DNA of 64,000 nucleotides, taken from the IMG/VR virus record IMGVR_UViG_3300037423_000584; one strand, 5' to 3'. The DNA is from a virus. Positions 17,640 to 43,093 of this stretch are shown in pieces; the stretch's first letter is position 1; each line of letters opens with the position of its first letter. The notes beneath the pieces are model-generated. The model saw only the letters and a program-made list of their open reading frames with translations. It did not search any database and was not told where the DNA came from. The position numbers were made by a program, and so were the translations under genes.

Positions 17640-18495
17640 GACTTGCACGCGGGGAGTCTCTACAATCTCCCCGTTAGCCAGTACCGAAACCGAAGCGTCT
17701 GCCATTAGGTAGGTGTCAGGGAGTAGGGAAAGCGGATTATGGAAACTCAGTGTGAGTTTCCCCGCTAAGGGTCTAGACTGGTGACGAACGAAAGGATTGC
17801 CCGACACCTAGTAACAAAAACCTAACGGCCGGTATTAGGAATCTGAGATGGGGACAACCCCTGTTGACTGGTTCTAAGGTACGGGTTGGAGTGAAAATCT
17901 CCCGTTGGCTAACCCAACGCAAGTGAATAGTCGATACCTTAGCTAGATAGGCTTGCCCTATTTGCGTCCCGCAAGGGGTGTGGATTCGGACCCGATGCTA
18001 GCGAACGTAATCGGCCACGGGTTTTTGCGATGGCCCGGAAAATCGCACTAGGTACGTCGTGACGACGTGTATGGGTTTACCCCAGCCTACGGTACATAGA
18101 TGGATGGACCGCTGTACTCTGATATAGGGTAGCTGGGTTTAACGCTCCCATTAAGGTAGGTAGTGTTGCTTAACCAGTCTTATCATATATCGGAATATTG
18201 GCAGATGATGCCCGGCCTAGGCTATAAGCCTCAGAGAAAGCCGTTAAACTTGGGATTCGCGTTCCCCTCAGTCCCGCTTGTGTGAAGCGATACACTGATA
18301 AAACGCTATAGCGTCCGAAAAGATTCGCTTGTGTGACTAATGCCTTACCAGCGTTCACAAGGAATTGAAGTAGGACCACGATTGGAGTCAGCAACTAATC
18401 CGGAAGCTATTTGGATGGCCACTGGATAGCAGGATGTAAATTAAAGAGCGATTGAACGCTTCTATTCAGAGTATAGCCGTCCGTCCATCTGTGGT
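17640..18495 (+). ncRNA. Candidate large structured ncRNA A
   Basis: GC-rich, no credible ORF, many hairpins; ~28 bp long-range helix 18098-18127 with 18462-18490 containing G-U pairs. Confidence 0.55.
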
Positions 18496-18545
18496 AAGTA
18501 AACTAGGTGAGTGGTCCGGCCTACCCTCAGAAAAGGTAGGTAGGT

Positions 18546-18812
18546 ATGCAACGGAACACTACGGTTCAAGAGGAACAGGAACGGCGAGAAGTGCAACGCT
18601 TTGGGAAAGCTTGCCACGAAGCGTTAGACGCTTGCCTTCGTAATGTCGAAAGTGCAAGGGTGACGTTTACTGGTCAAGGCGTGGAAGTGGGTGCAATCTC
18701 TCTCCGCATCGTTAAGACGTATGATGGCGAAAACCGGCCGGTTAGGTTGGTATCGGCATCTGCTACGCTCAAATTGCGTCTAAATGCATCGGCAGCTATC
18801 GAAAACAAGTAG
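18546..18812 (+). CDS. Hypothetical early protein
   Basis: ATG preceded by AAAAGGTAGGTAGGT. Confidence 0.6.
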   Translation: MQRNTTVQEEQERREVQRFGKACHEALDACLRNVESARVTFTGQGVEVGAISLRIVKTYDGENRPVRLVSASATLKLRLNASAAIENK

Positions 18813-18901
18813 TCGGATCGGCTTCGTGCAGAGGGTACGCCGCACCATTCATCTAGGTTACTAGGATATTGCGAGTCTCCCATAGTCCCCTTACAAGGTA
18901 G

Positions 18902-19138
18902 GTGATTATGGTTCAACATCTAATCAAAGTCGCCAAAGGTACGATTAATAATCCCGAAATCGTTCGGGTCTATACAATCACTAATGGGATTGTGTCGTAT
19001 CACATGGATTTTGTGGATTGGTTATCGGCTACAGAAATGTATCCCGATGGTTCATTTATCGATATGTTCGATGTTGGGATGCATCGTATCGGTGAAACGT
19101 TGGGGTTTTTCCCCGAAATATCAGCACTGGTCAATTAG
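18902..19138 (+). CDS. Hypothetical early protein
   Basis: AAGGTAGGT leader; likely start is the ATG at 18908. Confidence 0.6.
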   Translation: MIMVQHLIKVAKGTINNPEIVRVYTITNGIVSYHMDFVDWLSATEMYPDGSFIDMFDVGMHRIGETLGFFPEISALVN

Positions 19139-19251
19139 CGAACCCATAAGGGTTCTATGGGGGATTCTCAATATCTGAAAACATATCTACGGTATCGGTC
19201 AAGGTTTCACTTTTGAGCAATCCGAAAGGATTGCGGAAGGATGGTATTACC

Positions 19252-19719
19252 ATGACTCAGATCGATACTCCCGTCGAATCCTCTGCCGATGCCACTGAAG
19301 GCCAGCGGCAGGGTGCCGCTCCGGCCGCCCCGAACGCGGATGCGGAGCATTCGACCCGCGTCAAGAAGGTGATGGCCGACGTTCTCAAGCCCGGTTTCGG
19401 GAATGAGAACAAGGATGCCGCATTCACCCGCAAGATCGTGCAGTTGACGTTCCAGCGGGAACTCGGGAACGTGGACATCGCCGACAAGTCGGCCGATTCT
19501 GTGTACGCCGAAGCGTGCAAGCGGATCGCCGACAACGCCGAAGTCGAAGGCCAAGCGTTGAAGGAGCGATATATCGCGTCCGTCACCGCCGTCGCCTTGG
19601 GTGCTACGCGGGCCGTTACCCTTAAGGGTAACGTCACCGCGATGGAAGCGAGCAAGGCATACGTCAATTTCAAGCCGTCGGCCAAGCTCAACAACCAGAC
19701 GTTCTTCAACGCTCTGTAA
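19252..19719 (+). CDS. Hypothetical protein with GC-rich codon usage
   Basis: MTQIDTP... start after AAGGATGG; strong GC3 bias unlike the rest of the genome. Confidence 0.7.
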   Translation: MTQIDTPVESSADATEGQRQGAAPAAPNADAEHSTRVKKVMADVLKPGFGNENKDAAFTRKIVQLTFQRELGNVDIADKSADSVYAEACKRIADNAEVEGQALKERYIASVTAVALGATRAVTLKGNVTAMEASKAYVNFKPSAKLNNQTFFNAL

Positions 19720-20049
19720 CAAGATCCAACACTCTAACTGTCTCTAGTTTCCGGTATCGTAGATATGTAGTAGCTTAGATAGAACAAGAGGCGACCGGGC
19801 ACCGTGCCCGGCCGCTCTTGTTTGGGAGATAACTACGACATTATGTCGTACCTAACAAATGTTAGGAACGACGGGGAGTCGTACGACATTCTGACACCGA
19901 ACAGGTGTTAGGGTGTCTTTGTGTCGCACCTAACGCTTGGCTAACCAGGCAAGGTGTCGTACCGAACAAAAGCCAGCCGAACAAAAACCTAACAGCAGAC
20001 TCGGATGCCGACAGGCGGAGAGTCTGCGAGCGGCTGCGGCGAAGTACGG

Positions 20050-21255
20050 GCAACGTGCTTATGATTACTGTATCGGCAATATAGCTCTCTATGCGTCATT
20101 CTGACGCGGTACTACCAAGTAAGATTGTCACACTGTAAATTCAGGCGATGACAATAAGCTATGGTTAGTACATATATCTTATCCGTAATATAGTTCGCCC
20201 CAACCTTGTGATAGGTTGTCGATGATGCGAACAAATGCGGAGTCAACAGTAGCCAAGTACGGAATTGGCTAGGGTTGTCTTGGTATACTTGTAGGTGTCC
20301 AATGATCCTGAAAGGGTGAATTGGGCGTCGAAACTATATCAGGCTTCTACAGTGACTCTGGTGCCTTGGGTTAGCTCTATCGCGTCCCCTATGCTGTTGG
20401 TCAATAGACTGGCGTATAGGTTCGGTGTGGTATCTAATCTGAGAGCATCCCCTCTTTAGACGTAGAGGGTCAAAGACCGAAGGCAAGGCAAAGCACTACG
20501 TGGACACGTAGATGGTTAGGGATTGATACCTAATGGGTTTCCCTATCCTACCTACCTAATACCACAGTGACTAAGCGGTGCATACCGCATATCCAAACAG
20601 GATAGCAACTGTTAGGGATATGGACTGGAACACTGACGAAGGGGTACATATCTACCATTGAAGGCCAGACGGTTATCGAAGCCGAATGTAGATTCCCCGC
20701 TGATACGAAAGAAACTCTATCGAAGGTGCAAAGGCGAAGTCATCTTAGATGACGAAGTAGCCGATGAGGTCGATAGTGACGAGTAGTTGAATGTGAAATG
20801 AATGGCCTAATTAACATAACCCGAACCCAGGATATCCAAGTAAGAACGGTTGGACAGCTATCACATCGAAAGTCAAGCGATGATGCTGCATCACTTCCTA
20901 GTATGAAAACGGATAGCGTCTTTCCTATAATGACGTAAATGGCTGGGATAACTAAACTTATAGACGATTGTAGGTTGTCGTATAACCTACAGTTTGTAGT
21001 GTAACCATTTCAAAACTTGTCTCATGTAATAGTCCCAAACACAATGCAGTCAGAGCAAAGCTCATTCTGAATCCATTGATTATGCGTGGGTTTCGCTATG
21101 GAGTCCTTTGGACTCAGATTGCAACTCTGTCGTCAAACGACATGGACTAACACAGATTAGGTTTCGAAAGAAACTGATACCTCTCGGTATCGTTTTGGAT
21201 GGAAGCACGAACAACACATGCGGGGATCGGTTCGTGAATAACTGACCGATTCCCT
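20050..21255 (+). ncRNA. Candidate large structured ncRNA B
   Basis: About 1.2 kb with no ORF of 60 aa or more in any frame, dense hairpins, ends in a hairpin plus U-tract just before a tRNA. Confidence 0.55.
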
Positions 21256-21293
21256 TTTTTCGTTTCCAAATCCAGGTTCTAACTAAAAAGGTA

Positions 21294-21366
21294 GGGCATA
21301 TAGCTCAACGGTTAGAGCAGAGCACTCATAATGCTTTGGTTCTAGGTTCGAATCCTAGTATGCCCA
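21294..21366 (+). tRNA. tRNA-CAU (Ile2 or elongator Met)
   Basis: GGGCATA/TATGCCC acceptor, CTCATAA loop, GGTTCGAATCC T-arm. Confidence 0.9.
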
Positions 21367-21539
21367 TTGGTCATCTAACAAAGGTAGGTTAGCTATGGTC
21401 AAGTTTGATCGAACGTTCTTGTTCTTGGTTTCGTTCCTCATGCTTGCATGGGGATTGGCAGCGGTCGCGTCCAGGCATTAATTGCGGCGGCTGCTCGGAA
21501 GGATGGTAAGGAAACCCATTTTTACTAAGGTAGGTAAAT

Positions 21540-21815
21540 ATGCGTCGTTCTCTTCGTTCACTCATGGATGGATCGGCCGTAGGTGGCGTTTGTCATTCGG
21601 TTGAAACTCCTAATCCGCGTAGGGTTGGATTTTATCCCAACGTGGAAGGATTTGAATGGATTCATGATAATTTCGTGAATACCGATCAAATCGTTGAACA
21701 GCAAATCAAGCTGGGATATCATCCGGCCGGTTATGGCGGTCCTTATGATATCAAGCAGGAGCAGAGGGGTGATAAGGTTATTATCACTTGGAAATGCTCT
21801 GATAATTGTGATTAA
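21540..21815 (+). CDS. Hypothetical protein
   Basis: AAGGTAGGT leader. Confidence 0.6.
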   Translation: MRRSLRSLMDGSAVGGVCHSVETPNPRRVGFYPNVEGFEWIHDNFVNTDQIVEQQIKLGYHPAGYGGPYDIKQEQRGDKVIITWKCSDNCD

Positions 21816-22140
21816 AAATCACTCACAACCTCTGTATCGAAAGATACTTAGGTTGTTTCTACCTACCTTGAGAATCCATACATTGAATAGATGTGTGGGT
21901 TCTTTGCTCAGCCAGATGGCAGATAATATTAATAAGTCTGGCTAAAGTCCCATCGATGAATAACTGATGGGATTTTTTATTGATAAGTACAGGGTCGCCT
22001 CATAGTAAGCCAATTTCCCCTAGTCAGAGCATATAGGGCTTGCAAGGCTTAAGAATGGGATAACCATCACCCTGTTACATTTAATAACAAATCGCGGTCG
22101 TTGCCGCGAAACATGGATACCATCAAAGGTAGGTATTATC

Positions 22141-22647
22141 ATGGAAAAGCTTCGTCGTCTAATTCTTGACGGTATGAAGAACGTTGACGGTTATATTACC
22201 GTTACTGCTTTAGCTGAGGGTATTAAAAAAATATCATCATTTACTGTTGATGAAGTGAAAACCGAAATCAACCGTATGGTTCTTGATGGGATTTTGGATA
22301 CCTTTTATGCCCGATCCGAAGCGGATTTGGCTATTAGACAGCTTAGTAAGAATAAGCAAAAGGTCTATATTCGAGATTATCTTGTGTCTCGAAATGGTGC
22401 GGTTTATATCTCTAATATTCCTCCCAATCATACTTCTGAACAGTTCAAAAATAGGAAGTATCTTTGGAAGAATAACACTTGGCACGATACGTGCTGTACA
22501 AGGGATCTGATGGATTCGGATAGCAAAAACTATACCGATTATCCGGGGATATGGACTTCCTTGGATGAGGCAATTAAGTTTGCTAAGTCTAAAGGTTACG
22601 ATCCTGTCGATCTAACTGATTCTATAATTCAGTCTCAGGTTATCTAA
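22141..22647 (+). CDS. Hypothetical protein (possible N-terminal winged helix)
   Basis: AAAGGTAGGT leader; 168 aa. Confidence 0.6.
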   Translation: MEKLRRLILDGMKNVDGYITVTALAEGIKKISSFTVDEVKTEINRMVLDGILDTFYARSEADLAIRQLSKNKQKVYIRDYLVSRNGAVYISNIPPNHTSEQFKNRKYLWKNNTWHDTCCTRDLMDSDSKNYTDYPGIWTSLDEAIKFAKSKGYDPVDLTDSIIQSQVI

Positions 22648-22678
22648 GGCAATAATTCTTCTAAAGGTAGATACTATT

Positions 22679-22933
22679 ATGAATAACGTTGGCAACATTA
22701 GCGGCAAAACGATGATCACTCGTCATGCTGCTAATATCGTCAGTGAGACGAATCGTACTATGTCCGATAAGCCGGTGGCAGCTATGCAGAACCTTTGCAG
22801 GTTGCAGGGATATGTTACTGGCATGATCGAATCCTTGAAAATCAATGACAAGGAATGGATCGATGCCATGATGCATGGCTTGGATTCGGAGATTTTGAAA
22901 TATTCCAGGCAGATCACTATTCAGCATCCATAG
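22679..22933 (+). CDS. Hypothetical protein
   Basis: AAAGGTAG leader. Confidence 0.55.
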   Translation: MNNVGNISGKTMITRHAANIVSETNRTMSDKPVAAMQNLCRLQGYVTGMIESLKINDKEWIDAMMHGLDSEILKYSRQITIQHP

Positions 22934-23868
22934 TTTTGTATCGGCCTATGGTCCAAAACATACCAAAACCTCATTATTAGCTCAAAAACGAGGATTGGTG
23001 TTGTGTCCGCCTATGGTCAAAAACTGACCTTTCGGGTGTTTATAGGTTTAAATTATTACCATAAACATCCTTCTCATACCTACCTTGACACTCGTTATAG
23101 GGAAACCTGTAGCGGGTGTTTCTTTTGGAAACCGCGTTTTTAGCGTGAAAATGCGAGTTTTGTATTATTTGTGAATCGGTCTAGCAAAATATCACATAAA
23201 CAAACCCGAAAACTCGACAAAAAGCTCCGTTGCCTTATATCTATATGGTATAAGTATAAGAATAATAAAGATTATTGATATTGGATATAGGGATTTAATT
23301 AATAAACCCGATTATTTGTTCAAAAATAAGGGTTTTTTCATAAATTACAAGGAAATTCGCAGTATGCACCCCAATTCTATTCGCCTTAGCTATAAGTATT
23401 ATGGTAATAAGGGTAATAGTTATAAGAAAGAGTATAAGTATAAGGGGTTGTTTAGTAATATTAAGATCAAACCTTGATTTTTAGATCAAAAACGAGGTTT
23501 TAGTATGAATCGTGACAATGTACCATCGTCCACGCTTGTAGTAATAGGTATAGTTTCTATGCTTATTATTATGAGTGTGGGATTAGGTATAATTATATGG
23601 TTTATATGGCCTTAAACGGCCGTATAGGCTTTGATCACATGTCTAGTGTAATAGTACATTAAAACCTAATTCTAGGTGAATTGGGAATGTATTGTTAGAT
23701 AGGTATACCAAACAAAGGTAGGTATAGTATGCCGTTTGAATACAATAGCGATTATAAGATCGATTGGAACAACGAAGAAGATATGGATTGGTTGATGAAC
23801 CATATCGATTCGTATCTCAGTCGATAGTTATTTGATCTTGGGACTCTGATTTAAAAGGTAGGTGATCA

Positions 23869-24090
23869 ATGAAAGTTAATGTGGTTTTAAAGAATGCAGA
23901 CTTTACAGAATGTAGAGGTCCGATGCTTTTCCATAAAGTCTTTGTCGATCTAGACAAAGCTGTGGAATATGTAAAAGGACAAAGTGGGATATTTGGGGGT
24001 CAGCAGTACGATAAACCTTCTTCGTTTTCTTCCAAAAACAGATTAAGTTTTAATGGTTTTGATATCCTTACCGATATCGAACTTGAATAG
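23869..24090 (+). CDS. Hypothetical protein
   Basis: AAAAGGTAGGT leader. Confidence 0.6.
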   Translation: MKVNVVLKNADFTECRGPMLFHKVFVDLDKAVEYVKGQSGIFGGQQYDKPSSFSSKNRLSFNGFDILTDIELE

Positions 24091-24506
24091 GGCAGAATCG
24101 TATGAAACAGAACACTCTCTTTAAGACTCATAAGTTGTTTCAAACAACAGAAAAAGATGGTTTGTGGGGAGGAAAGATCACAATCTATCGTTGCTCTTGT
24201 TGCGGAAAACGATGGAGTGGTATTGGTAAAAAGCCTTCTGCTGGTGAAAGATGCAGAGGGAAGAATTGATATATAGTCCAAATTGCTAAGTGTTTGGCTA
24301 GGACCCTGATACTGAATAAGTATTAGGGTCTTTTTGTAATAATAATCCTGAAACGGCAGGATGGGTTATCAAGTAAAAAAGAGATATAGCCGTCAACTTA
24401 TCTCTTCTCTGATAAGACGGACCAGCGATGGTACACTGGTTATTATTACATTGAAATTCTAATATCGAAAGATGTTAGAGTTTCTTTATTTTAAAGGTAG
24501 GTTAAA

Positions 24507-24917
24507 ATGCGATTCTCTGAATGGTCAGATGGATCGATGCCCGTGTTTCTTAATCCAACCCATGACGAAATTGTGGAATTGGTTAAGTCTCATCCTGATA
24601 CGCTTCGTATCTGTGAAGATGACAATAATATAGCTGTTGCTAGTGGCTATGGTAATACACATACAAGTGTTATTAAAGTCATCAGAAAGAATGCTATAAA
24701 GGATTTCTTTCCATTGGACTTGATTCTCTTTAGAGAAACTGGCCGATGGTTATGGAATCCGTTGGGTCATTGGGATAGGGTACTAACAGAACGAGTAGGA
24801 TTTGAATCTGGGTTGCGGTTTTTGTCTGATAAGACAAAGGAGTTTGTTTTAGAGTTTGTTAGGATTGCAGAGGATCAATATAGGACAACAGAGTCTAATA
24901 TTATAGACTTTGAATAA
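24507..24917 (+). CDS. Hypothetical protein
   Basis: AAAGGTAGGT leader; 136 aa. Confidence 0.6.
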   Translation: MRFSEWSDGSMPVFLNPTHDEIVELVKSHPDTLRICEDDNNIAVASGYGNTHTSVIKVIRKNAIKDFFPLDLILFRETGRWLWNPLGHWDRVLTERVGFESGLRFLSDKTKEFVLEFVRIAEDQYRTTESNIIDFE

Positions 24918-25189
24918 AATTTAAGTGGGCTAGGGCATGAAGATTGCGAATTGTCAGTTTAATGAAGATAAACTGATTGTTGTTGTTAATGAAGAATCAG
25001 AATATCTATTCAAACATCCATCTATTAGAGATTTTGGAAGACATTTCTCTAGTAATGGTAAAGAACTTAAACCCACGAATTATTGGGTTTATAAATATGA
25101 TAGATATGATAGAGATTTAAAACTTGACGAAATCATTCTTCATCTGAACGAATTAGGATATACGGTTTTGTTTTAAAAGGTAGGCAAAT

Positions 25190-25384
25190 ATGCAACAAGA
25201 AAACTTGGAAGATTTGCCAAAACGTCAGCGTGTGAGTGCTGAGAATCACCACGCTTGTCGTCCATTGTGTCCATGTTGTGGAGGTGGCGATAATCGTAAA
25301 GGTTATAAACATACGAAGGCAACAAGCAGATATCATAGTGCAAAGTCCCGTAGATCGAAACCAAAGAAGAAGGATCATCAGTAA
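25190..25384 (+). CDS. Small basic Cys-containing protein
   Basis: AAAAGGTAGG leader; C..LCPCC and a K/R-rich tail. Confidence 0.55.
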   Translation: MQQENLEDLPKRQRVSAENHHACRPLCPCCGGGDNRKGYKHTKATSRYHSAKSRRSKPKKKDHQ

Positions 25385-25390
25385 TAAGCA

Positions 25391-25465
25391 GGGCACATAG
25401 CTCAACTATGGTAGAGCAGCCGTCTCCAAAGCGGCAGGTTTTTGGTTCGAATCCAAATGTGCTCG
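25391..25465 (+). tRNA. tRNA-Trp(CCA)
   Basis: GGGCACA/TGTGCTC acceptor, GCCGT-CTCCAAA-GCGGC anticodon arm, G73. Confidence 0.9.
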
Positions 25466-25492
25466 TTATATTAATAGAAAGGTAGGAAGTGT

Positions 25493-27616
25493 ATGAATTT
25501 GATTCAGGGTTGTAATTATCAAGTTAAGAAAGATCATCGTTTTCATCCGGGTCGATTTGGTCAGTTTCAATTTCTTGGTGGGCCTAATCGAGAAGCAATT
25601 GTTATGTCTGATTTGCAAGATTCAAAAAGTATCTTTGCAGTAGGATTGAATGACCTTGTTGATTTTGATCCTGCCAAAGATGATGTATTTGAAAATGCTG
25701 TACCGGGAAGAATGTTAGAATTAAGCTAAGATCAGCATCTTTGATTGTCCCCTTCGTAGAACTTCAAGATTGAATAAGTCTTGGGTTCTTTTGTAGATAG
25801 GTTAGGTGACATCAGAGTCTTATAAAATGCCGAAAGGTATAGCCTATCTACTTAATTTAAAAATAAAGGTAGACAACATGAAAGCTAAATATATTATTTT
25901 GGAACGATCTGGTATCGAAATGCCAATTTTGTTTCCAGAATTTATTGAACACATAGATGCTGTACTAATTGGTGGTAAAGTTATATCTGCTGGATTTTTT
26001 GAAGTTATTCTTCGCGAACATTCAAGAATGGAAGTGAGAGCCTACGGAGAAAGCATTAGCCTTAAAGTAAAGGCTAGATTCGAAGATGCTGATTTGATCG
26101 AGAAAATGATCTGTAATTATGAGAATTAAGGTAGGTTTGTATGCAAACCAAATCAATTGTTCGTGAAAACGCAGAAAAAGATCCGAATTATGCACCGTAT
26201 TGTATGCCTTGTCCTCGTTTGGTTCGAATGAAGAAAATCGAACCATTCTTTTGGAAGTGCGATAAGTGCGGTGCCGAATGCGACGAACGAGAGATTAAGC
26301 AAGAAGATATTGATAAGCTTGATGAGCTTCAATCGAAAGAGAATGATGGTCGTGGTATTTCTTGTGTAAAAACCATCCTTTTCTTTCTTAGACATAATAA
26401 AATTGATGAAGCTAGGGCTTGCAGGCAAAACGAAGGCGACAAGATTAATTCTTATCCATTGGTCGAATTACAAATCAACAAGATGTTTGGTTGCAGAACG
26501 CATTTAAGGAAGATGTGTAATCATTGGCTTTGCGTTAGTCTTCTAAATGGGACCAAGGCAAAAACAGTTGTTGCCCCGCATCATGGATAACCATGATTAC
26601 GCATGTTGCTATACTTGATATAAATAAGAAAATTTGGTCATTACCTAGACCCAACCGTCATCATAATGTAATTCATATGATTAATGAACAATCTGGTAGA
26701 GATATTGCCAGAGGTTTATTAAAAGATCATGTGCAAGGATTTATGAATGACTCTGGTCAATTTTTAACACGAAAAGAAGCATTTTATGAAGCGTTAAGAT
26801 GTGATCAATTGTTACCACCTTATAATCCAATTAATCCATCTGAAAGACATGGTGAGATTAATAAAAATCCTAGAGAATTATTCTCAGAGGATTTGTGGTA
26901 GATTTTGCCCCTTGAGTTCCAGGCAGGAATCCAATAGTAAACAACTGTTGGATTCTTTTAAAGGTAGGTGAAATATGGAAGATCCGGTTTTAGAAGCTAT
27001 ATCGCTTCTAATGGAAAGTTTCTTGCCTCAAATGTCTGGTTCTGAGACAGTTAGACATAGAATTTGTGATGAATTTGTTCAGTTCCAAGTTGATAGAGAT
27101 ATCTTTATCGATTGGATGAAAGTTCATCCTGAATTTAAGATGCTTAAGGAGATCAAAGCACTAGTTCTTCTTAAGAACAATAAGAACAGAATGATTAAAC
27201 AGTTTTCTGTTGATTCATTTATTACTTCTTATCTTACTAAACCTAATCGTCATAAAGATTCATTGGTTCGTGAAGCTGGACGAAAGTTTGGTTTGACATA
27301 GACGATCAATAAGATCGTCATTGATCTTATATGATCTTTCTTTCTTAAAAGGAGAAAGGTCATGGACAAAGAGACTCAAAGAAAAATAGATCATCTGTTT
27401 CAAAAACAGATAATGAAAAATATTCCAGAAATTGTGTTAATGGCACAACTGGTTATTTTTAGTCAAGAGAATAGAGATACAGAAGCAATAAAGAAAGAGA
27501 TCCAGCACAGACGACGGTTAAATAAATGGCTTGATGAATATGGTACATGGCACAAGGGACAAGCTCCATATGGTGCCGATGCTATACTTGAACAAATAAA
27601 TAAAATGAAATCGTAA
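25493..27616 (+). other. Cluster of six small hypothetical CDS (25493, ~25878, 26141, 26593, 26975, 27362)
   Basis: Tandem ORFs, most with AAGGTAGG leaders; 26593 carries an RHH..QGF..G.FL.R.EA..LFSEDLW motif seen in phage proteins. Confidence 0.6.
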
Positions 27617-27694
27617 TCAATTACAAATTATTTTATGTATTGATGAGTTCGCTTCCGTATACTGATGAGTTCGCTTGACAAAGGTAGGTAGATT

Positions 27695-28204
27695 ATGCGG
27701 AATTTGGCTAAACCGTTTCGTCCGGTTCGTTTGATTAATGATAAACCTTATGAATTGGATACCATGCGTATGGGTCCGAAGGGTCAATCGGTTAACACAA
27801 CTGGTTGTTTCGGTGTTCAATCCACATACGGGGTTCGTGGATTAAGTATTGTTAATCGGAAAATAGCTCCGGGCAAACACAAAGGTGCGGTTAAGAAAAA
27901 AAATGGTTCTAGGCTTATTTCTGCAAGAACTATTCTTAACTTTGATCGAACATCTTTGCCGAAATTGTTAAATATTCGGAACGATCTTGTTTTCCTTAAG
28001 GCTCTTAATGGTCTTTCGGAAGATATGGATCAGGTTTTGAATGATTTAACTGATTATATGTTGGCAAGTTATGGTTCATCGATTAAGAAGTTCGACGAAC
28101 AACGTATTCGTACTGCCAAGGGGATGATTGGCAAAATTCAAGTTAAACCCATGAATGATCTTAAAGAGAAGATCAATCGGGCTTTGGCTATCATGGGTGG
28201 ATGA
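27695..28204 (+). CDS. Basic protein, paralog of 40674-41309
   Basis: Shared NTTG.FGV.ST.GV..LSIV.RK.APGK...KKKNGS.LIS block. Confidence 0.7.
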   Translation: MRNLAKPFRPVRLINDKPYELDTMRMGPKGQSVNTTGCFGVQSTYGVRGLSIVNRKIAPGKHKGAVKKKNGSRLISARTILNFDRTSLPKLLNIRNDLVFLKALNGLSEDMDQVLNDLTDYMLASYGSSIKKFDEQRIRTAKGMIGKIQVKPMNDLKEKINRALAIMGG

Positions 28205-28580
28205 TGAACACTTTGGATAAAATAAAACTTATTCCTAAAAATAAGTGGATGAAAGACAGAATACAACGACATGGAGATGTTGTTATATTCAAAAAAGAAG
28301 GTTTGTTTAAAGGTAAAAAAGCTTTACTTGTAGAATCACTTAATAATACTTCTATTGTCAATACCAAGTGGTTGGCTTGGATTGTTTTAGAAGAAGACGC
28401 ATCTATTGTTGTAATAAAATAGATTTCCTACCTTGAGAATCCTGTAACTGAATAAGTTGCAGGATTTCTTTGTATACATACGAGGCCGCGGTGGCTCGGG
28501 GAGACGTTCCCTAGTTCCGTTCGATTCGGGTACTTGGTAGAGATAGCATTCGACAGCTATCCCGTATGTATACTTAATAT

Positions 28581-28690
28581 ATGGCGTTGGGTAGGCCGGC
28601 GTCGATAACCGGCTAAATCTTCGGATGACCTTGGCAGGACTACCCTCGGAAAAGGCTCATTACCATCCGGGTTCGAATCCCGAACGCCAT
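28581..28690 (+). ncRNA. tRNA-like RNA with 8/4 acceptor/T module and non-tRNA multibranch interior
   Basis: ATGGCGTT/AACGCCAT, CGGG-TTCGAAT-CCCG; interior closed by GGGTAG/CTACCC with three hairpins. Confidence 0.65.
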
Positions 28691-29137
28691 TTTCTCTCGG
28701 TAAGGTATAGCAAAGTAGTTATACCTTATTATCCTGTTGTTTTATATAGGGGAAGTTAGCTTATGTTTGGGGATCATTTGTCTTTGGCCAATCTTTGGGT
28801 AAAGATGGCAAAGTTGCATGAGCTAATGGGACAAGATGCAGCATCTAGATTAGCAATTAGAAATGCTTCTTATCACATTGAAGAAGCAGCAAAACTTCAA
28901 CATCAAACTGTTCGATTTAATAGGGAAGGCGGTGATGTCATATGCTCTAGTACAAAAATAGCTTGTGCATAAGTCGGACCCCCATTCTTATGCACTAATA
29001 GCTGATTAGGGGTACAAATTTGGAGGATATATGCAAGCTTAGCTTGTACTACTTAATAAACAATAAAATAAATTAAATATCACACGCGGATTCCGATGCT
29101 TCAAATACCTCATTCTGAATAAGAGTGGGGTATTTTT

Positions 29138-30518
29138 ATGGAACCTATCGAAGAAGCAAAAGAGCTTCTAAGAACAATATACTATTATGCCACTAGAGAT
29201 TCTAATATTCTTTGGTGGCATTCATTGAATAGCGAGACAGCACTAGAACTACTTAATAATGGATCTTTGATTGATATCTATGATTTTTTGACAGATATCA
29301 AAGATTGGGCCACTAGTGAAGGTGATGATGTTGGTCCCGATTGGTGGCAACAAAATAATTTAACGAAACGAATTTTATCTATTGACCTTTCATAAAGGTA
29401 GGTAATCATGAGCAAAGAACAACTGCTCGAAACAGTTGGAAGTTTTACTTGGAGCTTTCATGATAAGTTCCTTGTCGAGATTCCAAATGTTGGCAATTTT
29501 GTTTGGAGCGATCCAGATTATCGTGGGGATAATTCCTTTAAACGATATGATGGAAATTACAAACAGTGGTGCAAAGAAGAAGGAATTCCTTTCGGTCGCG
29601 ATAAAGGAAAACATAAGATTCGAAATTATTGCGGATCTGAAATCAAGATTGTCGGACTGTAAATCTATTGATTTATTAAAGGTAGGTTGATATGGCATGG
29701 GTCACGTTACATGATCTTTTATCTCCAAATTTAAATCTTTATGGCATCGTTCCACTAGATGCTACTATAACTTTAATCAGTGGTTCTGATGATGAATCAT
29801 CATTCTTTCGTTATGAATATAAAAAGAATGATTATATAGAAGAAATGATTCGTCTCGATAAGACAAAAATGTCGATTCGCGATTTTATCGACAAATTTGC
29901 CATTCTTGCAAAATCAACTGAATGGGGTGTTTCTAAAAATGGATCTTTAATCCATCATTCTGATGGTTTATATCGTGTAAAGGATGGCAAACTAGTTTCA
30001 TTTGAAGTAAATGGCGGTCAAATAGTTTTTCTTACATACTGTCAATTAGATTTGACAGAATGGTTGAAAGAACAACCGGACGATATTCTTGCTCAATTCA
30101 TGAAGCATTCGTTTGGATGGCGAAGAGAATACAAAGAGTTGGCAAATAATCTGTGTAATAAACTTGCAAGGCAAATCAACCTTTTGCAAGGCAGATATGA
30201 ATAAGGTGCCTTATGCAACCTAAAGTAAGGCGTCATCGTCGCATCTATGGTCGGATAAGTCTTAGCGATCCTTGGAATAAACTATGTTGGGATTTGCTTG
30301 ACGAGGGTCGTAGTTATGCTTATATAAGTCAAAAGACTTATCTGACATACTATCAGATTACTTATCGAGTAAAGAAATGGAATAAGAAAGTTTCTTATTA
30401 TAGAAATGGAACAGGGCAATCTAAAGCAGCTAGTAGAAGAATGAAACGATTAATTCTTCTCGAAGAACGTATCGAGAAGATGGTTATGGGAAGCAAACGG
30501 ATTGTTGTTTCTCTTTAG
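29138..30518 (+). other. Four small hypothetical CDS (29138, 29408, 29692, 30213)
   Basis: Tandem ORFs; 29408 and 29692 have AAAGGTAGGT leaders; 30213 is basic with an HTH-like segment. Confidence 0.55.
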
Positions 30519-30798
30519 TTATCGAAGATAACAGGGATGGTGGCCATGGGGTTGTATGTTCAATTTGTAATCTTGGATATTCTCGATTGGTTCGACAATA
30601 TCCTCAACAGCGATCATTGATCGCAAGAAGGCTATATGTCCAGCAATCTTCACGGTTCTCATGACGGTTATGCTATGCGTACTGCTAATAAAGCCGTTGC
30701 TGGTGGTGTGATTCTTGTTTGGGGATTTGTCATTCTTGTGGTTGTTATGATGATAATTGGTTGGGTTATCAATCTGTTTAATTAATCTGGGAGGATTA

Positions 30799-30966
30799 AT
30801 GTCACCGTTTTTGGGGTTGGCTATTGTTTTCTTTATTGTCGCCATTGCTTGTTATGTCGCAGGAGCTAACACTTCTGGAATGCTAGAAAGAATTGGACGA
30901 ATTATGTTATTCGTCTTTCTGACATTGGCAATCATTTTCCTAATTATTGGATTCATGCGTCAATAG
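30799..30966 (+). CDS. DUF1328-like small membrane protein
   Basis: GGAGG RBS; two hydrophobic helices, LAIVFFIVAI...IGRIMLFVFL. Confidence 0.55.
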   Translation: MSPFLGLAIVFFIVAIACYVAGANTSGMLERIGRIMLFVFLTLAIIFLIIGFMRQ

Positions 30967-31798
30967 CAACTCCGCAGGACGGTTAATATTGGACGTAACC
31001 AGTTAGTGGATTGTAATATCCTCTAAGGGAGTCACAATCGGCAAGTGACCGAAAGTGGTAACTCTAATAGCTAGATTTGTCCTATCGTAACAGATGGGCA
31101 AATCTTTGTGTCTAAATCGAATGCAACCACGTGTGTTTAGGGCACCTTGGTTGAGACTGTGTGTTAGGCGTAATACAGCCACCACTTTCTTAGCCCTGAT
31201 TTAGATACCTTTTGAATCATTCATCGACGGATGAATGATTCTTTTGTTTTGTTGCTGACCAGAAATGGTGGATATATAATTGAATGTTGGCCAATTCCCT
31301 TGTGGTGGTAACTCCTAGGCCATGACATAGTTATATATTATACGAGCAGTAACAAAACTCGAAATTTACTTATAGAAATATAGGTAAATTTCTTATGAAT
31401 AATAAGCCATTTGGACATACTAGTAGATATGGAACCATTGTAACATCTGATAGATGTGATTTTGCTAATGGAATTACGATTATAAAAGATCATAATTTAT
31501 CAGAAGATAGATATATTTCTGATATAGCCGAGGCATTTGGATTTCATGCTGCAAATATCCTTCCTAATCTAAATGGTTTTCAAGGATATGATTGTTTGAA
31601 GTTCAATTTCATCTAATGTTATTTATCAATCAAACGACTAAAGGTATATTAATCGCAACGGTTATTATAACTATTGCAATTTTTTTATTCTCTGGGGCGG
31701 TATTTGAGCCGTTAGTCAATAAGAACTGGGCGATTATTTTGTCGTCTATTGGTACTTCGTTGATTTGGTATTTGATTTTAAAGTTGAAATATTGAATT

Positions 31799-31915
31799 AT
31801 GAAACAAAAAGCTTTTACTCTTACTGAATTACTTATTGTTATTAGCACTATTGTTGTTCTTGGTATTGTATTTATTCTGCTTATTTTAAAAGCAATTTCT
31901 ATAATTCATCATTGA
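31799..31915 (+). CDS. 38 aa peptide consisting of a prepilin-type N-terminal motif
   Basis: Manual translation MKQKAFTLTELLIVISTIVVLGIVFILLILKAISIIHH. Confidence 0.55.
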   Translation: MKQKAFTLTELLIVISTIVVLGIVFILLILKAISIIHH

Positions 31916-31945
31916 TATAAGTTGTTGTAATTAGTAGATTTAATA

Positions 31946-32024
31946 GCCCCGGTATCTCAACCGCCTTCTAAGCGGTCGTTAACCGAGTAATTGGAGTATG
32001 CAGGTTCGAGTCCTGTCCGGGGCG
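31946..32024 (+). tRNA. Atypical tRNA-Arg(UCU)-like RNA lacking a canonical D-arm
   Basis: GCCCCGG/CCGGGGC acceptor; ACCGC-CTTCTAA-GCGGT arm only 7 nt after the acceptor; canonical T-arm. Confidence 0.7.
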
Positions 32025-32631
32025 TTAGTGATCAATATTTGTATGTGAAAAATCTTTCTAACTAGATTTATATGAAACAACAAATTATTGTAGTCGAATG
32101 TACGGGTCCAGATTTTCACGACACAATGATCAAACTTGTTCGTGACTATGGATTTAATGGCTATTTGGCTGTCAAACATGGTGAGTTTATTTATACCATG
32201 CTTGATGCTGGATGGCGTTTGATGGCACCACCAGTTCTTATTGAAAAACCAATTACTGGTGATGTTTATCATTGGTGGTTTGAAAAGAAGGAATAAAATG
32301 ATTAATATTGAAGAATTAGAATCTAAACTTAAGCAATTTAATAGTGATATTATATTTCGTCGCGGTGAGAATAATCTATCTTTAGATGTTATAGGCAGAT
32401 ACGATAGATCAAAAGATTGTGTAGATAATGAATGGAAGATGGGTGATCTTGCTGAGTATCTTGGCAAAAAAATAAACATTATTAATCAACTTACTTCTGT
32501 TCCTATCTCTTATTACAGTTTTGGTTGTAATCAAAATGCTGCAACTTATTGTGTTACTTTTAATTTGAAACCAAAAGAAGAAAACAAACAAGTTTGCGAA
32601 ACTTGTGGAAAATAAGCCATAAAGGTGTATC

Positions 32632-33765
32632 ATGGCTAAGTACGAATTTTTAATGTTGGCTCACACTTTTGATGATACTAAACATTCTATATTAGATATG
32701 TTTGCATCAGAAAAAGTAGATGGAGTTCGTGCTTTTTGGGATGGTGGAATATCTAGGGGATTAGAATGTTCTGCTGTTCCTTATGCCAATATAGAAAAAC
32801 ATGCGAGATATCTAAGTCCGCCAAAGGCAACTGGTTTGTGGACCAGATATGCTCAGCCGATCCAAGCACCTTCTTGGTTCCTAGATCAATTACCACGAAT
32901 ATTATTAGATGGTGAATTAACAGCAGGACGCAAAACATTTCAAATTGTTTCATCAGTAACAAGAAAAATAGTTCCAGATAATGGTTGGCAATCGATTAAG
33001 TATAAAATATTTGATTCACCATGTTTAGAAGCGGTTTTTCTTGATAGAACAGTTAAAAATCGTAATCTTGATAAAATATTTAAAAGTTGTACTGATTGGG
33101 CTAAACAAAGAATAAACCATCTTGGGTTAGACGAGAGAGCATTTCCGGATCAAATGGACTTCGAAAGTGCTCTTTCTTTTTTGGTTCGCCATATTAGAGG
33201 TGATAATAAAGTAGTACAAATTCTTAATCAAATAAGGTTGTCTACTGATCATTCCGTGGCTAAGGAAATCTTGGACAGGGAACTTAAAGATATTGTCGAA
33301 GGTCGAGGAGAGGGTGTAATGCTTCGAAGACCTGACAGTATTTGGTATCCGCAAAGATCTTATAATCTTTTAAAGGTTAAACCTACTTTAAAAGGACAAG
33401 CAATTATTATAGGTTATATTTGGGGCAAAGAAACAGACGTTGACAAAGCAATAGGTGTGGGAACTGCAAATAGAATGCTTGGTTACATGGGGGCAATTCG
33501 TTGTAGACTAGATTCAGGTAAAGAATTTAAAATATCTGGATTTGAAATGGCTGAACGAATTATGATTGCTAGTTATGTTAATTTTAATCTAACTCGTTCT
33601 GCTTATGATGAAGCATATGCGTATGGATATCGTCATCCGGGTGAAGTTGTAGATTCTTCCAAGTTTTACAATCCTAGATTTCCTATAGGAAGTCGAATTA
33701 GATTTCAATATAGGGAATTAACAGATGATGGAATTCCTAAAGAAGCGAGATATTTAAGAGAATGA
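32632..33765 (+). CDS. ATP-dependent DNA ligase
   Basis: SEKVDGVRA (KxDG), LDGEL, FDSP, GEGVMLR, LLKVK motifs and C-terminal OB fold. Confidence 0.92.
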   Translation: MAKYEFLMLAHTFDDTKHSILDMFASEKVDGVRAFWDGGISRGLECSAVPYANIEKHARYLSPPKATGLWTRYAQPIQAPSWFLDQLPRILLDGELTAGRKTFQIVSSVTRKIVPDNGWQSIKYKIFDSPCLEAVFLDRTVKNRNLDKIFKSCTDWAKQRINHLGLDERAFPDQMDFESALSFLVRHIRGDNKVVQILNQIRLSTDHSVAKEILDRELKDIVEGRGEGVMLRRPDSIWYPQRSYNLLKVKPTLKGQAIIIGYIWGKETDVDKAIGVGTANRMLGYMGAIRCRLDSGKEFKISGFEMAERIMIASYVNFNLTRSAYDEAYAYGYRHPGEVVDSSKFYNPRFPIGSRIRFQYRELTDDGIPKEARYLRE

Positions 33766-34853
33766 ATACGCCAATTTTCGAAAATCACTGTAATCATTCT
33801 AAAGAATCATATGTTGGTTCTTTTTTCTTTGATGGTTGGCATGATGTGTATGTTTTTCCAAATCCAAGATATGACAAGATTGGAGAAGTTTGTATTCGTT
33901 ATGGAAACGAAGGATCTGAATACATTTCTCCCGGCGGTATAACTGGATTTATGGAGAATCAAACTTTAATGCCAGAATATATCATTGCAAAAGCAATGAT
34001 TGGAATATGGCTCAAGAAAGAAAAAGAAATATTTATACCAGAAGCTTGGGGTAATGGTTAAATGCGTTCACATATAATAGCTGTAATAAATCCAAATAAC
34101 GCAGATAAAAATAGTGTGCAGGATATTATTGCAGCTATTAAAGATTGTGGAGGATTTGATATTGTTGATTTGGGTTCAGGAATGATTGAAGCAGTTGTGC
34201 CATCTATATCGTTGTGCGAGATTCACTTCATGGATGGTGTTGGATGTGTCAGGACAGTGATGAACTACCAAGAGAAGTAAACTTCTTATATGATTAATAA
34301 GATTAAAAATCTTTGGTGGGCTTGGAAGAATAGATGCAAAGATGTGAAATCAAGACATGGATACTATTTATCACCAACATCTTTTTACCATCATTCTGGT
34401 TGGATAGACCGAGCATTCATTCCTTGTAAAGTTTGTGGCGATAAGTATTGTAGATGGGCCGTGAATAGATATACAAAGAAAACTTGCGAAACTATTTGAT
34501 ATGAAAGAAATAATCGCATCAATATTGTTTTTGCCAATGATGTTTGTTTCATTTATCCCCGGTATTAAAAACGTAAAACGAATTCAGTTAATTAATAACT
34601 GGATTGGTAATCAAATCTGGAATGATAACACGTAATGAAATATCTTAATCCTGTATACTTGCTTGGTTTTTTACTTGGCAAAATATGTAATTTTGTTGAT
34701 TATATAGGTGATAAAATGTACGATGGATATTTAAATTCAAGACGATAATTTATACAAGAAGATTAATTTATAATATTGACTATCTTGGTTTGATAGAACA
34801 ATTAGATTAGTTTTCTTATATAAGATATGGGCATAGAAATGTGTCCTATAGAC

Positions 34854-34928
34854 GGGTCCGTAACTCAAGTTGGCTAGAGTGCTTCCCTTTTAAGGAAGAG
34901 GTTGTGGGATCATGCCCCACCGGACCCA
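34854..34928 (+). tRNA. tRNA-Lys(UUU) with atypical T-loop (AUCAUGC)
   Basis: GGGTCCG/CGGACCC acceptor, CTTCC-CTTTTAA-GGAAG anticodon arm. Confidence 0.85.
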
Positions 34929-35566
34929 TTTATCTGTTTTTTCTTTTTTAACCTTCTTATATGTCCTCTAATGGCATTATCAGTAACACCTAGTTCTTTT
35001 GCTAATTGAACATATGAAGTAGTTTCTAATCTTTGTAACAGTTCTTGTTCTGTTGGCCATTGTATTTTTGTATCTCTTACTCTTTGTTGATTGGCACATG
35101 AAATACATCTGGTATAACCTCTACTGACTCTTTTTCCACAAAGACAAAAGTATTTTGGACTCGATTTTTGCTTTGGTGGTTTTTCTCTAATGGTAATAAA
35201 TTTTGATTTATTGATTTCCCAATGTGTTTCCTTGTGACAATTAGAGCACAGAAGAATGCATTTATCTAATTCCGTAATTGTATCTGGATAAAGAATTTCT
35301 ACATCAAATCTTCTGATTCTAGATATATTTATATCCTTTTTGGATGGATCTAAATGATGAAATTCTAAAGCGGCTAAACATTTGTCATATCCACACTTAC
35401 AACATTTTCCTCCTTTGTAATCTACACATAGTTTTTTAAACATTCTTTGTCGTTCTAAACTTTGTTCAGAACAACATTGTTTACAATAATGATAAGTGTT
35501 TGCTTTGCCGTTAATATAAAATTGTGATATATCTTTCTCTTGTTCACATCTTTTACACAATCTCAT
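34910..35566 (-). CDS. HNH homing endonuclease inserted antisense, overlapping the tRNA-Lys 3' end
   Basis: GGKC..CGY....ALEFHH.DP..K...EL.KC.LLC.NCH..H and C-terminal HTH. Confidence 0.88.
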   Translation of the reverse strand: MRLCKRCEQEKDISQFYINGKANTYHYCKQCCSEQSLERQRMFKKLCVDYKGGKCCKCGYDKCLAALEFHHLDPSKKDINISRIRRFDVEILYPDTITELDKCILLCSNCHKETHWEINKSKFITIREKPPKQKSSPKYFCLCGKRVSRGYTRCISCANQQRVRDTKIQWPTEQELLQRLETTSYVQLAKELGVTDNAIRGHIRRLKKKKQINGSGGA

Positions 35567-37134
35567 TGAACTATCTCCTATATAAATAAAGTTTGTTATT
35601 TATTTATACAGGACAAGATTCAAATAATTTCAATTAATGAAACCAAAAGTTAGAAAAGTTGGAATGAGCGATTATGAAATGAGAGATTATCATTTCAAAT
35701 CTAAAGCTAGTAAAAAAGTTAGAAAGAGAATGGCTAAACGATTGCGTTCTCGTGAGAAAAAAGAAATTAATAATTTGAATTCGGATGGAGATTAAATCAT
35801 GATTATAAAAGAAACTTTTCAAAAGCCGATCGATAAATATACTCTTTGTGCAGACGAAGTTGCTGTGGCTATTAAAGAACATCTTCGTAAATATGGATAC
35901 AAAATACGCGATAATCAAACAATTGAAGTAAATGGAGTTTTTATTGGAAAAGACGATAAAAGCTACCAAACTTTTTTAGTTAGATAGTTTACGCAATAAA
36001 CCAAGGAAGGTAGGTAGAAAATGTTTCAGTATTCATATTTAATTCATGAAGGAAAAGAAAAGGTAATTCCACAAGATAAAGTTCAAAAGCTTATCGATCT
36101 TAAAATTATTAAGAAATTTGAAGGTACTCTTAATAATTATCGTGGCAATAGAATAGTTTCTCCTATTTATACTTTTGATCAAGGGAAATCTTGGGCCGAT
36201 GCTCAAGATATTTTACTAGTTAAACCCAAATAGGTAGGGAGGTTTAAGAAAGGATTTGTATGGCAAATGTAACCGTTTCTCGTAAGGAAGGATATTCTAG
36301 ATCCAAGATTTCTATCGATACAAATGGATTAGAACTTGGAGATATCATTCCACGGGTTGCAAATCCTTCTAGTTGGGGTTTTAACAAAATTGATTCTATT
36401 AAAGAAGAAGATGTTAAAAGAGCAATTGGACACGCTCTGGAACCGGCAGAATTGATTGTCATTGGCATTTCTGGCGACATTATTACTGCGTATCATAGGG
36501 ATTGGAATAACAAATATAGTCTTTATATGGCAAATAAAGATAGTATTACTCGTCCAATCTTTTAAAGAGGTGTCCTATGAGACACATTGTTGCACTTTGC
36601 GGACAGCTTGTGTTTTCTGAGATGATCGAAGATGACGAGGGGAAAATAGCTGGTAAAGTATATGTTGTAAATCCAGAGAAATCTTTTATAGTTGATACTA
36701 TTGAATTTGGAGAAGATTCTCTAAAAGAAGCAGTTCAACAAATTAAAGAAAAGCTTCCTTCTGATGTTCGTCATTGTATTAAGTTTTATGAAATCCTATC
36801 TCCTTTGCAACCAGTAGAGATAGATGTACAATAGAAATTGGTTGCACTACAATGGTCCTAGACAGAAATGTATGGGATCATTTTCTTTTACAAGAAGGTA
36901 GGTCATGCTTGTTATAGGAAAAGATCTTCTTAAAGATCTTAATCCAAAAACTATTATCGAAATAGTTAATCAACTAAATGATACTGCTAAAGTTTTTGGA
37001 ACAGAATGTGTTATGATTAATGATTCTATCTGGACTAAAACAGAGATGGAGTCAAAAGACAAAGCAATGTTTAAGATATATGCATTAGGTATTATAACAG
37101 GATTAGTTATTGCAAAGAGAAGTTTATAGTCATT

Positions 37135-42984: not shown

Positions 42985-43093
42985 GTACCCATAGCTTAAA
43001 GTGGCCCACCTTTGACTACCTACCTTTTGGTTGGCTGCGTGGCAAAGCAACTCATAATCTGAGTAGATCTTGGTTCGAACCCAAGTGGGTACA
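42985..43093 (+). ncRNA. tRNA-like RNA with D-loop hairpin displaying anti-leader sequence CCUACCUUU
   Basis: GTACCCA/TGGGTAC-A, GCTT/AAGC D-stem, insert CCAC..GACTA-CCTACCTTT-TGGTT..GTGG, ACTCA-TAATC-TGAGT arm, CTTGG-TTCGAAC-CCAAG. Confidence 0.8.

Follow-up and report, generated by a model that had tools for sequence, protein, structure and literature searches.

The stretch analysed here, called the window below, comprises 64,000 nucleotides (nt) and corresponds to bases 74,356-138,355 of the 172,542-bp virus record IMGVR_UViG_3300037423_000584 of IMG/VR; coordinates are window positions. The genome is rated complete by CheckV and has a G+C content of about 35%. No DNA match to cultured phages was obtained, TerL is at most 25% identical to that of any cultured phage, and neither TerL nor one protein of the sector described below retrieved a relative from IMG/VR. 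Structural and packaging genes point leftward, starting at about 17 kb, and a long rightward arm begins near 17.6 kb. In this arm a short word, AAAGGTAGGT, occupies the Shine-Dalgarno (SD) position in front of 19 open reading frames (ORFs), hereafter the tagged genes. Complements of the word are present on other RNAs of the same phage, and word and complements may together form a switch for this gene set.

With at most one mismatch allowed, 25 copies of AAAGGTAGGT were counted in the window, compared with an expectation of 4.1 and a maximum of nine in 100 shuffles. The 8-mer AAGGTAGG has 21 copies on the plus strand of the whole genome. Nineteen of these lie between 18.1 and 36.9 kb, where 0.6 are expected from a second-order Markov model, and the remaining two are found inside genes far upstream. 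AAAGGTAGGT or a one-base variant of it precedes the ATG of 19 plus-strand ORFs located at 18.5-36.9 kb (the tagged sector) and of no other gene in the 172.5-kb genome. The earlier note on this DNA, made from the letters alone, had listed the same 19 starts, and all 19 start codons check out. The spacer between the end of GGTAG(G/A) and the ATG measures 2-7 nt in all leaders and 5-7 nt in 17 of them. AA, the core GGTAG and the ATG are each conserved in 19/19 leaders, the G following the core in 17/19 and the next T in 16/19. The ORFs encode 28-170 aa; two are short (28 and 32 aa) and two are situated in a G+C-rich stretch, where ORFs are weaker evidence for genes.

All tagged leaders are on the plus strand. 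The leftmost one, 18532-18541, stands before the ATG at 18546 (88-aa ORF) and has a complementary element, here called Box 1 (CCTACCCT), at 18520-18527. It is followed by 18894-18903, where the word reads CAAGGTAGGT (ATG 18908, 76 aa), by 21380-21389 just after tRNA-Met (ATG 21395, the 28-aa ORF, a doubtful gene), by 21526-21535 (ATG 21540, 91 aa), by 22125-22134 (ATG 22141, 168 aa) and by the variant GGTAGA at 22663-22672 (ATG 22679, 84 aa). The 32-aa ORF starting at 23729 is preceded by 23714-23723. The word at 23854-23863 (ATG 23869, 73 aa) extends into GTGATC, and its predicted 16S pairing is the strongest among all scored genes of the genome. The leader 24493-24502 (ATG 24507, 136 aa) lies directly behind a terminator-like hairpin with a U run. 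Then come a C-ending copy at 25176-25185 (ATG 25190, 64 aa), an A-ending one at 25478-25487 just after tRNA-Trp (ATG 25493, 78 aa) and a further GGTAGA variant at 25865-25874 (ATG 25878, 83 aa). The remaining leaders are 26127-26136 (ATG 26141, 149 aa), 26960-26969 (ATG 26975, 108 aa), 27680-27689 (ATG 27695, 169 aa), 29394-29403 (ATG 29408, 84 aa), 29678-29687 (ATG 29692, 170 aa), 36006-36015 (ATG 36021, 70 aa) and 36894-36903 (ATG 36905, 74 aa), the last with a spacer of just 2 nt.

To compare ribosome sites across the genome, 5-mer enrichment was determined at positions -18 to -3 of 269 predicted genes. Sector genes are enriched in GTAGG, GGTAG and AAGGT, the minus-strand structural module in GGAGA, AGGAG and AAGGA, and the remaining plus-strand genes in GAAAG, AAGGA, AAAGG and AGGAT. 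Since three distinct dialects are recognised, the restriction of the word to the sector is real. The genome-wide count agrees with this, and both bear out the earlier claim that the motif is essentially absent from the late module and from genes beyond 37 kb.

The sector holds about 39 ORFs in total, and about half of them bear the word. Those that do not are mostly overlapping or closely behind the preceding gene, and the few with longer gaps use other SD words. The 19 tagged proteins display no mutual similarity (blastp, E 0.01), and the 42 nt upstream of the word have a mean identity of 27%, which equals the random value. As neither the proteins nor the upstream flanks are related, the word is kept by selection and not by descent. 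It is an SD-position element specific to one gene set.

Copies of the word away from starts were found at 18152 and 21287. The latter (21287-21296, AAAGGTAGGG) overlaps the first three bases of tRNA-Met (21294-21366), which may be due to chance or may reflect a link to tRNA 5'-end processing.

Predicted pairing of the word with 16S rRNA

With the canonical 16S tail GAUCACCUCCUUUCU, the word is predicted to form 9 bp, AAAGG and AGGU, around one bulged U. The earlier description of the word as a perfect SD complement with one inserted T is thus accurate. The predicted energy of -8.7 kcal/mol equals that of a GGAGG core, and the 3' half of the word is at ideal spacing. Predicted 16S pairing has a median of -8.3 for sector genes against -4.9 for other genes, which makes the sector the strongest in the genome. 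Judged from these predictions, the word is very probably the functional ribosome site of the tagged genes.

One possibility is that it is nothing else, namely a plain strong ribosome site for high immediate translation, in which the extra U tempers a site that would otherwise be over-strong, and of which any complements elsewhere are relics or chance matches. Ideal SD spacing and the strongest predicted 16S pairing in the genome speak in favour of this. Tempering, however, predicts a mix of weaker SDs, and what was found is an identical GGTAG core in 19/19 leaders belonging to unrelated genes with unrelated flanks. Moreover, an uninterrupted complement would pair at -12.5 kcal/mol, more strongly than the word, and the T is nonetheless present in 19/19. 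It follows that something reads the T. We return to the plain ribosome site below, together with the complements.

We also considered whether the reader of the T could be the 16S rRNA itself. If the host 16S ended in ACCUACCUUU (tail ACCUACCUU(U)), the word would pair perfectly and would be the optimal SD of the host. Such a fit to a variant tail had been put forward in the earlier note, along with a comparison of 16S 3' ends. An anchored 16S-end pattern was therefore searched in one genome per species, covering about 185,000 species; it replaced a first 14-nt pattern, whose matches were random and never at a 16S end. A single true 16S with a complementary tail was detected, in the Gammaproteobacteria metagenome-assembled genome (MAG) CAWEEB010000029.1, in which an A is inserted in the anti-SD (tail GATCACCTACCTTA). 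This MAG contains 75 copies of the 8-mer against 113 of a reversed control. Since the word is not in excess there, the tail may be an assembly error or a silent variant. In Pirellulales, which are a candidate host order only, all 22 complete 16S ends (from 61 genomes) are canonical.

The phage itself points in the same direction. About 230 of its other genes use GGAG, AGGAG or AAAGGA, in line with a canonical tail; GGAG needs CUCC and cannot pair with the variant tail, so these genes speak against it. Relatives of the phage place the extra U differently in the same arm (see below). Neither a piece of small-subunit (16S) rRNA nor bS21 was found in the phage genome. Further, a variant anti-SD matched by a variant SD is known from no organism (Amin et al. 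2018, PMC6107228). The comparison of 16S ends thus lends no support to a host with a variant tail, and we consider this explanation scarcely credible.

Two other likenesses were discarded. The resemblance of the word to the 16S stretch CAAGGUAGCC, located between helices 44 and 45, is probably coincidental, and a role of the TAG within the word as a stop signal is without support.

Complementary boxes in this phage and its relatives

The complement CCTACCTT has four copies on the plus strand of the whole genome, all of them within 21.8-43.0 kb, against 0.14 expected. Three copies constitute a small repeat family (D8), in each of which the box follows a stop codon and immediately precedes a long terminator hairpin that ends in a U tail. 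Their boxes are unpaired in the predicted fold (fold z -3.9 to -7.2) and offer seeds of 9-10 nt. The first member is a 3'-untranslated region (3'-UTR) unit at 21860-21904 (+), after the stop of gene 21540-21815. Its Box 1, TACCTACCTTGA, is predicted to be unpaired (fold z = -7.2), with a hairpin on its 5' side and a 15-bp terminator hairpin plus U tail on the other; the stretch 21816-21905 is laid out like a small RNA, with hairpin, single-stranded seed and terminator. The second member, at 23077-23126 (+), has its Box 1 directly 5' of terminator hairpin 23087-23120. The third, TTCCTACCTTGA at 28425-28473 (+), follows the stop of gene 28201-28422 and is directly 5' of terminator hairpin 28437-28467.

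The fourth copy is carried by a tRNA-shaped RNA at 42985-43093 (+; Rfam tRNA 42.5 bits), 6 kb beyond the tagged sector. The D-loop of this RNA is enlarged by an insert of 44 nt. The predicted 18-nt apical loop of the insert hairpin contains positions 43018-43027, which complement the word exactly over 10 nt, and the match to some leaders extends to 13-14 nt. The loop 10-mer and the three terminator-proximal boxes all represent antisense-type seeds of at least 8 nt that are predicted to be presented unpaired. A Box 1-like double copy, CCTACCTACCT at 20547-20557 (+), lies in a G+C-rich, ORF-poor stretch and is partly paired in the predicted local fold.

Predicted duplexes of the box with the leader word range from -12.4 to -16.0 kcal/mol, compared with about -7.5 to -11 for a perfect canonical SD and -4 to -8 for a late-type site. 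Against the loop region of the 42985 RNA, individual leaders reach -10 to -24. In the earlier note the word had been proposed to be a regulon-specific translational address, read by the 42985 RNA or by a protein. The gene-set-specific word at the SD position holds, and the 42985 RNA is indeed tRNA-shaped with an exact complement in its loop; the act of reading belongs to the model weighed further below.

Relatives were recognised by a cREC/CheY-like protein (13179-14492, minus strand), homologues of which, with 52-63% identity, were detected on contigs of phages that are 100-185 kb long. Relatives A and B, the closest two that were found, have a cREC of 61-63% identity, and gene order is common from cREC through the epimerase and HNH genes; in the one whose contig extends further, it is kept through terminase and portal to the capsid gene. 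More generally, a cREC_REC/CheY-like receiver beside packaging genes marks a clade of uncultured phage contigs (45-63% identity, the longest 100-185 kb). Relative A has a second, short cREC_REC gene in its rightward arm (18071-18439 of the arm stretch examined).

No GGTAGG leaders are present in the rightward arms of A and B. These arms contain at least 16 bipartite leaders (13 in A and 3 in B), which consist of (A)ACCTACC with CT or TC, 2-28 nt that sometimes include a small hairpin, AAGGATGGT or GGAGATGGT, 0-5 nt and ATG. The second box, too, corresponds to a perfect SD into which a single U is inserted; relative to the word of this phage, the U is shifted by one base towards the 3' end. With the canonical tail, predicted pairing is -8.6 or -8.7 for each of the three SD words that carry an extra U. 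On the structural side, the relatives use ordinary ribosome sites.

The two boxes of the relatives covary. Leaders with CCCT invariably have AAGGATGG, and those with CCTC have GGAGATGG. At the second pair of the inner stem, 12 of the 16 leaders have C-G and 4 have U-A, so that 16/16 are paired, and the third pair is formed in 13/16. For the outer pair, 15 leaders show A-U and one shows U-A. It is thus reasonable to conclude that the boxes base-pair in RNA.

This covariation is also relevant to the question of whether the word or Box 1 is a signal at the DNA level, either a DNA-binding site or part of a promoter from which transcripts with a short leader or none would arise. TAGGTN begins with T-A like a -10 hexamer, Box 1 of the relatives is found about 20 nt ahead of the start and behind a TAA(A) stretch, and DNA-binding proteins were favoured for the extended inverted repeats among the start-associated sequences (SAS) of mycobacteriophages (PMC3203893). 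On the contrary, the last hexamer position is unconserved, the word ends just 2-7 nt from the ATG, and many tagged genes begin 10-30 nt behind the previous stop. The boxes covary as RNA pairs, including G-U pairs that exist on the plus-strand RNA alone. The sector shows no enrichment of sigma-70-like sites (57 against 66.5 expected), and its intergenic regions share no promoter-like word. A DNA signal is therefore very unlikely.

The ancestral type of leader is retained in this phage at 40645-40676 (+), in front of gene 40674-41309, where Box 1 CCTACCCT, 6 nt, AAAGGATGGT, 5 nt and ATG follow one another as in the relatives. The leader 18520-18548 combines the ancestral layout with the new word and gives a perfect predicted hairpin of -10.9 kcal/mol. 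With Box 1 at 18520-18527, the leader of ATG 18546 can thus form a hairpin that would mask the SD in the manner of the relatives. In 16/19 tagged leaders there is no complement within 70 nt. Judged from sequence, the masking hairpin in cis is not the general layout here; it is seen at 18520-18548, at 40645-40676 and in the 16 bipartite leaders of A and B.

Two central bases of the SD word are swapped between this phage and its relatives; by this change the interrupted helix with the box becomes an uninterrupted helix of 9 bp. The SD word of the relatives, AAGGATGG, is found here as well, before the G+C-rich ORF 19252-19719 (at 19237-19254) and before the glycine-rich, GTG-started ORF at 42395 (at 42374-42397), so the genome holds both dialects.

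With the complements and the relatives at hand, the plain strong ribosome site can be reconsidered. The extra-U sites of the relatives are equal to the word in predicted strength, and Box 1 is an ancestral leader element, which makes leftover copies plausible. Yet the complements show an enrichment of about 30-fold, occur in this one region only and are unpaired in predicted folds, one of them in the loop of a tRNA scaffold. Besides, the SD word of this phage departs from that of the relatives exactly so as to complement the box perfectly. We judge a plain ribosome site to be unlikely, though with some real weight.

No relative bearing the word of this phage was found in IMG/VR scans or in ligase and cREC neighbourhoods. 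The IMG/VR scan for the word followed by ATG returned mostly single chance matches and a few contigs with 2-3 copies, without clear use of the word. A scan of IMG/VR for the bipartite leader matched just a conserved coding stretch (T-Y-P-D-K-D-G) of another phage family. Ligase homologues are at most 48% identical, and one fetched neighbourhood and 80 IMG/VR neighbourhoods are devoid of GGTAGG leaders; the same holds for the flank examined in cREC relatives of 50% identity or less. The sector protein 29692-30204 has one remote homologue (35% identity), encoded on a contig of 58% G+C with ordinary SDs. The other contigs encoding this protein do not differ from this phage in sequence and thus offer no microdiversity.

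A candidate switch and comparable systems

Since the same word stands before 19 genes, its complement is present on RNAs of the same phage and the relatives have cis hairpins, we are probably dealing with a switch for a whole gene set. In the model that we propose, the word would be the SD of a gene class of the rightward arm and would dock on the ordinary anti-SD of the host via 5 + 4 bp with one bulged U. The extra U would make the site private, as it would allow a perfect match of 9-13 bp to an anti-SD look-alike of the phage, the CCUACC box with its matching extra A. In the relatives, the box a few bases upstream of each such SD would form a small masking hairpin in cis. In this phage, most leaders would have lost the cis box, and the box would be displayed single-stranded before three terminators of the early region and in the loop of the 42985 RNA. 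Box RNAs would bind tagged leaders far better than GGAG/AAGGA sites and about 5 kcal/mol better than a perfect canonical SD. Accumulating box RNAs would then limit or shut off translation of the tagged genes and leave other ribosome sites untouched. The tagged genes are presumably an early class. We infer this timing, as well as the transcription of the trans-acting RNAs, their binding and the repression.

As a whole, the model postulates a private SD/anti-SD pair by which a gene set would be masked, within the same leader in the relatives and in trans in this phage; we regard the chances for and against it as about even. Its wider form is put forward tentatively: a clade of large uncultured phages might possess an orthogonal "SD plus one base" code, whose cis hairpins were rewired here into a trans switch by means of a tRNA-scaffolded RNA and 3'-UTR seeds.

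Several observations weigh against the proposed switch. With mostly -3 to -5 kcal/mol, the predicted cis hairpins of the relatives are weak; masking may thus not be their sole or main role, and both boxes could have a protein reader. The predicted unpaired probability of the SD differs modestly, 0.46 in this phage and 0.35 in the relatives. In 31 kb of the arm of relative A, neither a free-standing complement of its own SD word nor a tRNA-like array was found, and the trans placement is consequently seen in this phage alone so far. The Box 1 copies at 21860 and 28425 have a common start of the terminator stem and may therefore be duplicates, which would reduce the number of independent placements. 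Finally, when a longer, 36-nt stretch of the 42985 RNA is considered, values of -13 kcal/mol or better are also obtained for 12 non-tagged genes, and energy alone is hence not fully specific.

The weakness of the hairpins leads to the question of a protein reader. The word, or in the relatives the Box 1/Box 2 hairpin with its internal loop, could be the operator of an RNA-binding protein of phage or host, such as a repressor of RegA type or an RNase of RegB type. There is precedent in T4, where proteins acting on the ribosome sites control many early mRNAs, with RegB cleaving GGAG and RegA binding at the AUG, and many early messages are shut off in this way (Uzan and Miller 2010, PMC3014915). 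The asymmetric internal loop of the relatives is conserved and their hairpins appear too weak to mask well alone, and for the start-associated sequences, too, Pope et al. left an RNA or protein reader open (PMC3203893). Against this, no homologue of RegA (PF01818) or RegB (PF10715) was detected in the CheckV-complete genome, in searches that the bacterial control genomes could not validate. Ten sector proteins were scanned against Pfam and PHROGs, and none exceeded the threshold for a known family. A protein reader also leaves unexplained why exact complements of the word are single-stranded on four RNAs. We consider it improbable. With regard to T4, the switch proposed here would resemble RegB and RegA in the class-wide shut-off of early genes at ribosome sites. 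It would differ in that T4 relies on protein readers and RegB recognises an ordinary GGAG, whereas here a special word has RNA complements.

The closest described system are the SAS of Cluster K mycobacteriophages, with the 13-bp consensus GGGATAGGAGCCC and a reader, RNA or protein, that was left open (Pope et al. 2011, PMC3203893). SAS are short asymmetric words, present in 11-19 copies in the non-structural half only, 3-7 bp before starts that are mostly ATG. They comprise an SD core together with conserved positions unable to pair with 16S, and rare reverse copies occur away from starts. The same general type is found here, as a conserved asymmetric word stands near many starts, in one orientation, in the non-structural arm. 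The word is not GGGATAGGAGCCC, and phages and hosts are unrelated (TerL identity to cultured phages being as low as given above). Neither a complementary box nor a cis hairpin nor antisense display has been described for SAS, whereas here a matching partner word exists and covaries. The word of this phage thus works like SAS and is not a member of them. New in the present case are a partner for the base that is unable to pair with 16S rRNA, a cis box of the relatives that covaries with the SD, and three terminator-proximal complements.

C4 RNA of P1/P7 (Rfam RF01695) and small RNAs with C-rich loops act by antisense pairing with ribosome sites or SDs; C4 contains a tRNA-like feature needed for RNase P processing and has one target operon. 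The 42985 RNA is similar in being a structured RNA with a single-stranded anti-SD-like seed that fits the ribosome site of phage mRNA. In contrast to the one operon of C4, one seed is predicted to fit 17-19 leaders here. In addition, an entire tRNA, with an insert in its D-loop, forms the scaffold, and extra seeds are located before terminators, like in small RNAs derived from 3'-UTRs.

In T4 genes e, soc and I-TevI, leader hairpins mask the SD and block translation on early transcripts. The leaders of the relatives, as well as 18520-18548 and 40645-40676, share with them an upstream anti-SD-like stretch that pairs with the SD. The T4 cases are individual ones, whereas one word pair is found on at least 13 unrelated genes of one relative. 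Further differences are the extra U/A pair, which is absent from the SD/16S duplex, and the masking word, which most tagged leaders of this phage lack in cis. The review already cited (PMC3014915) deals with RNA structure at T4 initiation sites.

Conserved start-site words of a phage gene class were thus described before as SAS, with no reader assigned, and in the present phage the non-pairing base has a concrete partner supported by covariation. If the model is true, a phage addresses a whole gene set in translation by one short RNA word and leaves the ribosome sites of the host and of its own late genes untouched. It would then also follow that a cis-masking system can evolve into a trans-acting one and that a tRNA body can scaffold a regulatory seed. 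Such a switch would also provide a model from nature for orthogonal translational control with ribosomes that need no modification.

Surroundings of the tagged genes

The head of the rightward arm displays the best sigma-70-like promoter match of the region at 17638-17666 (+; TTGACT, 17 nt, TACAAT), which is a consensus match only. On the other side of the strand switch, many ribosome sites of minus-strand structural genes are GGAGAUAAUAAA or close to it, for example those of the genes ending at 3799 and 4320 and of several located before the window. This sequence resembles the extended cleavage consensus of T4 RegB, GGAGRAYARAA, quoted in PMC3014915.

Two ORFs-poor islands of 47-59% G+C stand out from the 35% G+C genome. 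One is at 17000-21300 of the window and the other at genome positions 69500-72400, that is 2-5 kb before the start of the window. One of them is inside the leftward structural block and the other at the right-hand end of this block, where the strand switches. They are dissimilar to each other, and the arms of the relatives carry a G+C-rich island at the same place. An Rfam search of window positions 16.9-21.4 kb, which covers just the island within the window, detected tRNAs only, and ORF 19252-19719 had no homologue among 301 Planctomycetota genomes. Both islands are candidates for large structured RNAs or foreign inserts.

tRNA-like pieces are present in the sector itself. The stretch 28470-28700 includes a T-arm-like GGGTTCGAATCCCGAAC stretch and long inserts and received no ARAGORN call, and 31946-32024 scores 35.7 bits as an Rfam tRNA and was likewise missed by ARAGORN.

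Terminator-like sites are enriched in the sector, with 35 found against 13 expected. Some belong to a family of hairpins with 13-15 bp, rich in G-U, which share the loop UGAAUAA/G or CGAAAGA and are followed by a U run. Members are located at 19885-19923, 24300-24338, 25758-25796 and 28436-28474, and also at 21870-21904, 24449-24489 and 41330-41370. Several of these terminators have a tagged leader directly behind them.

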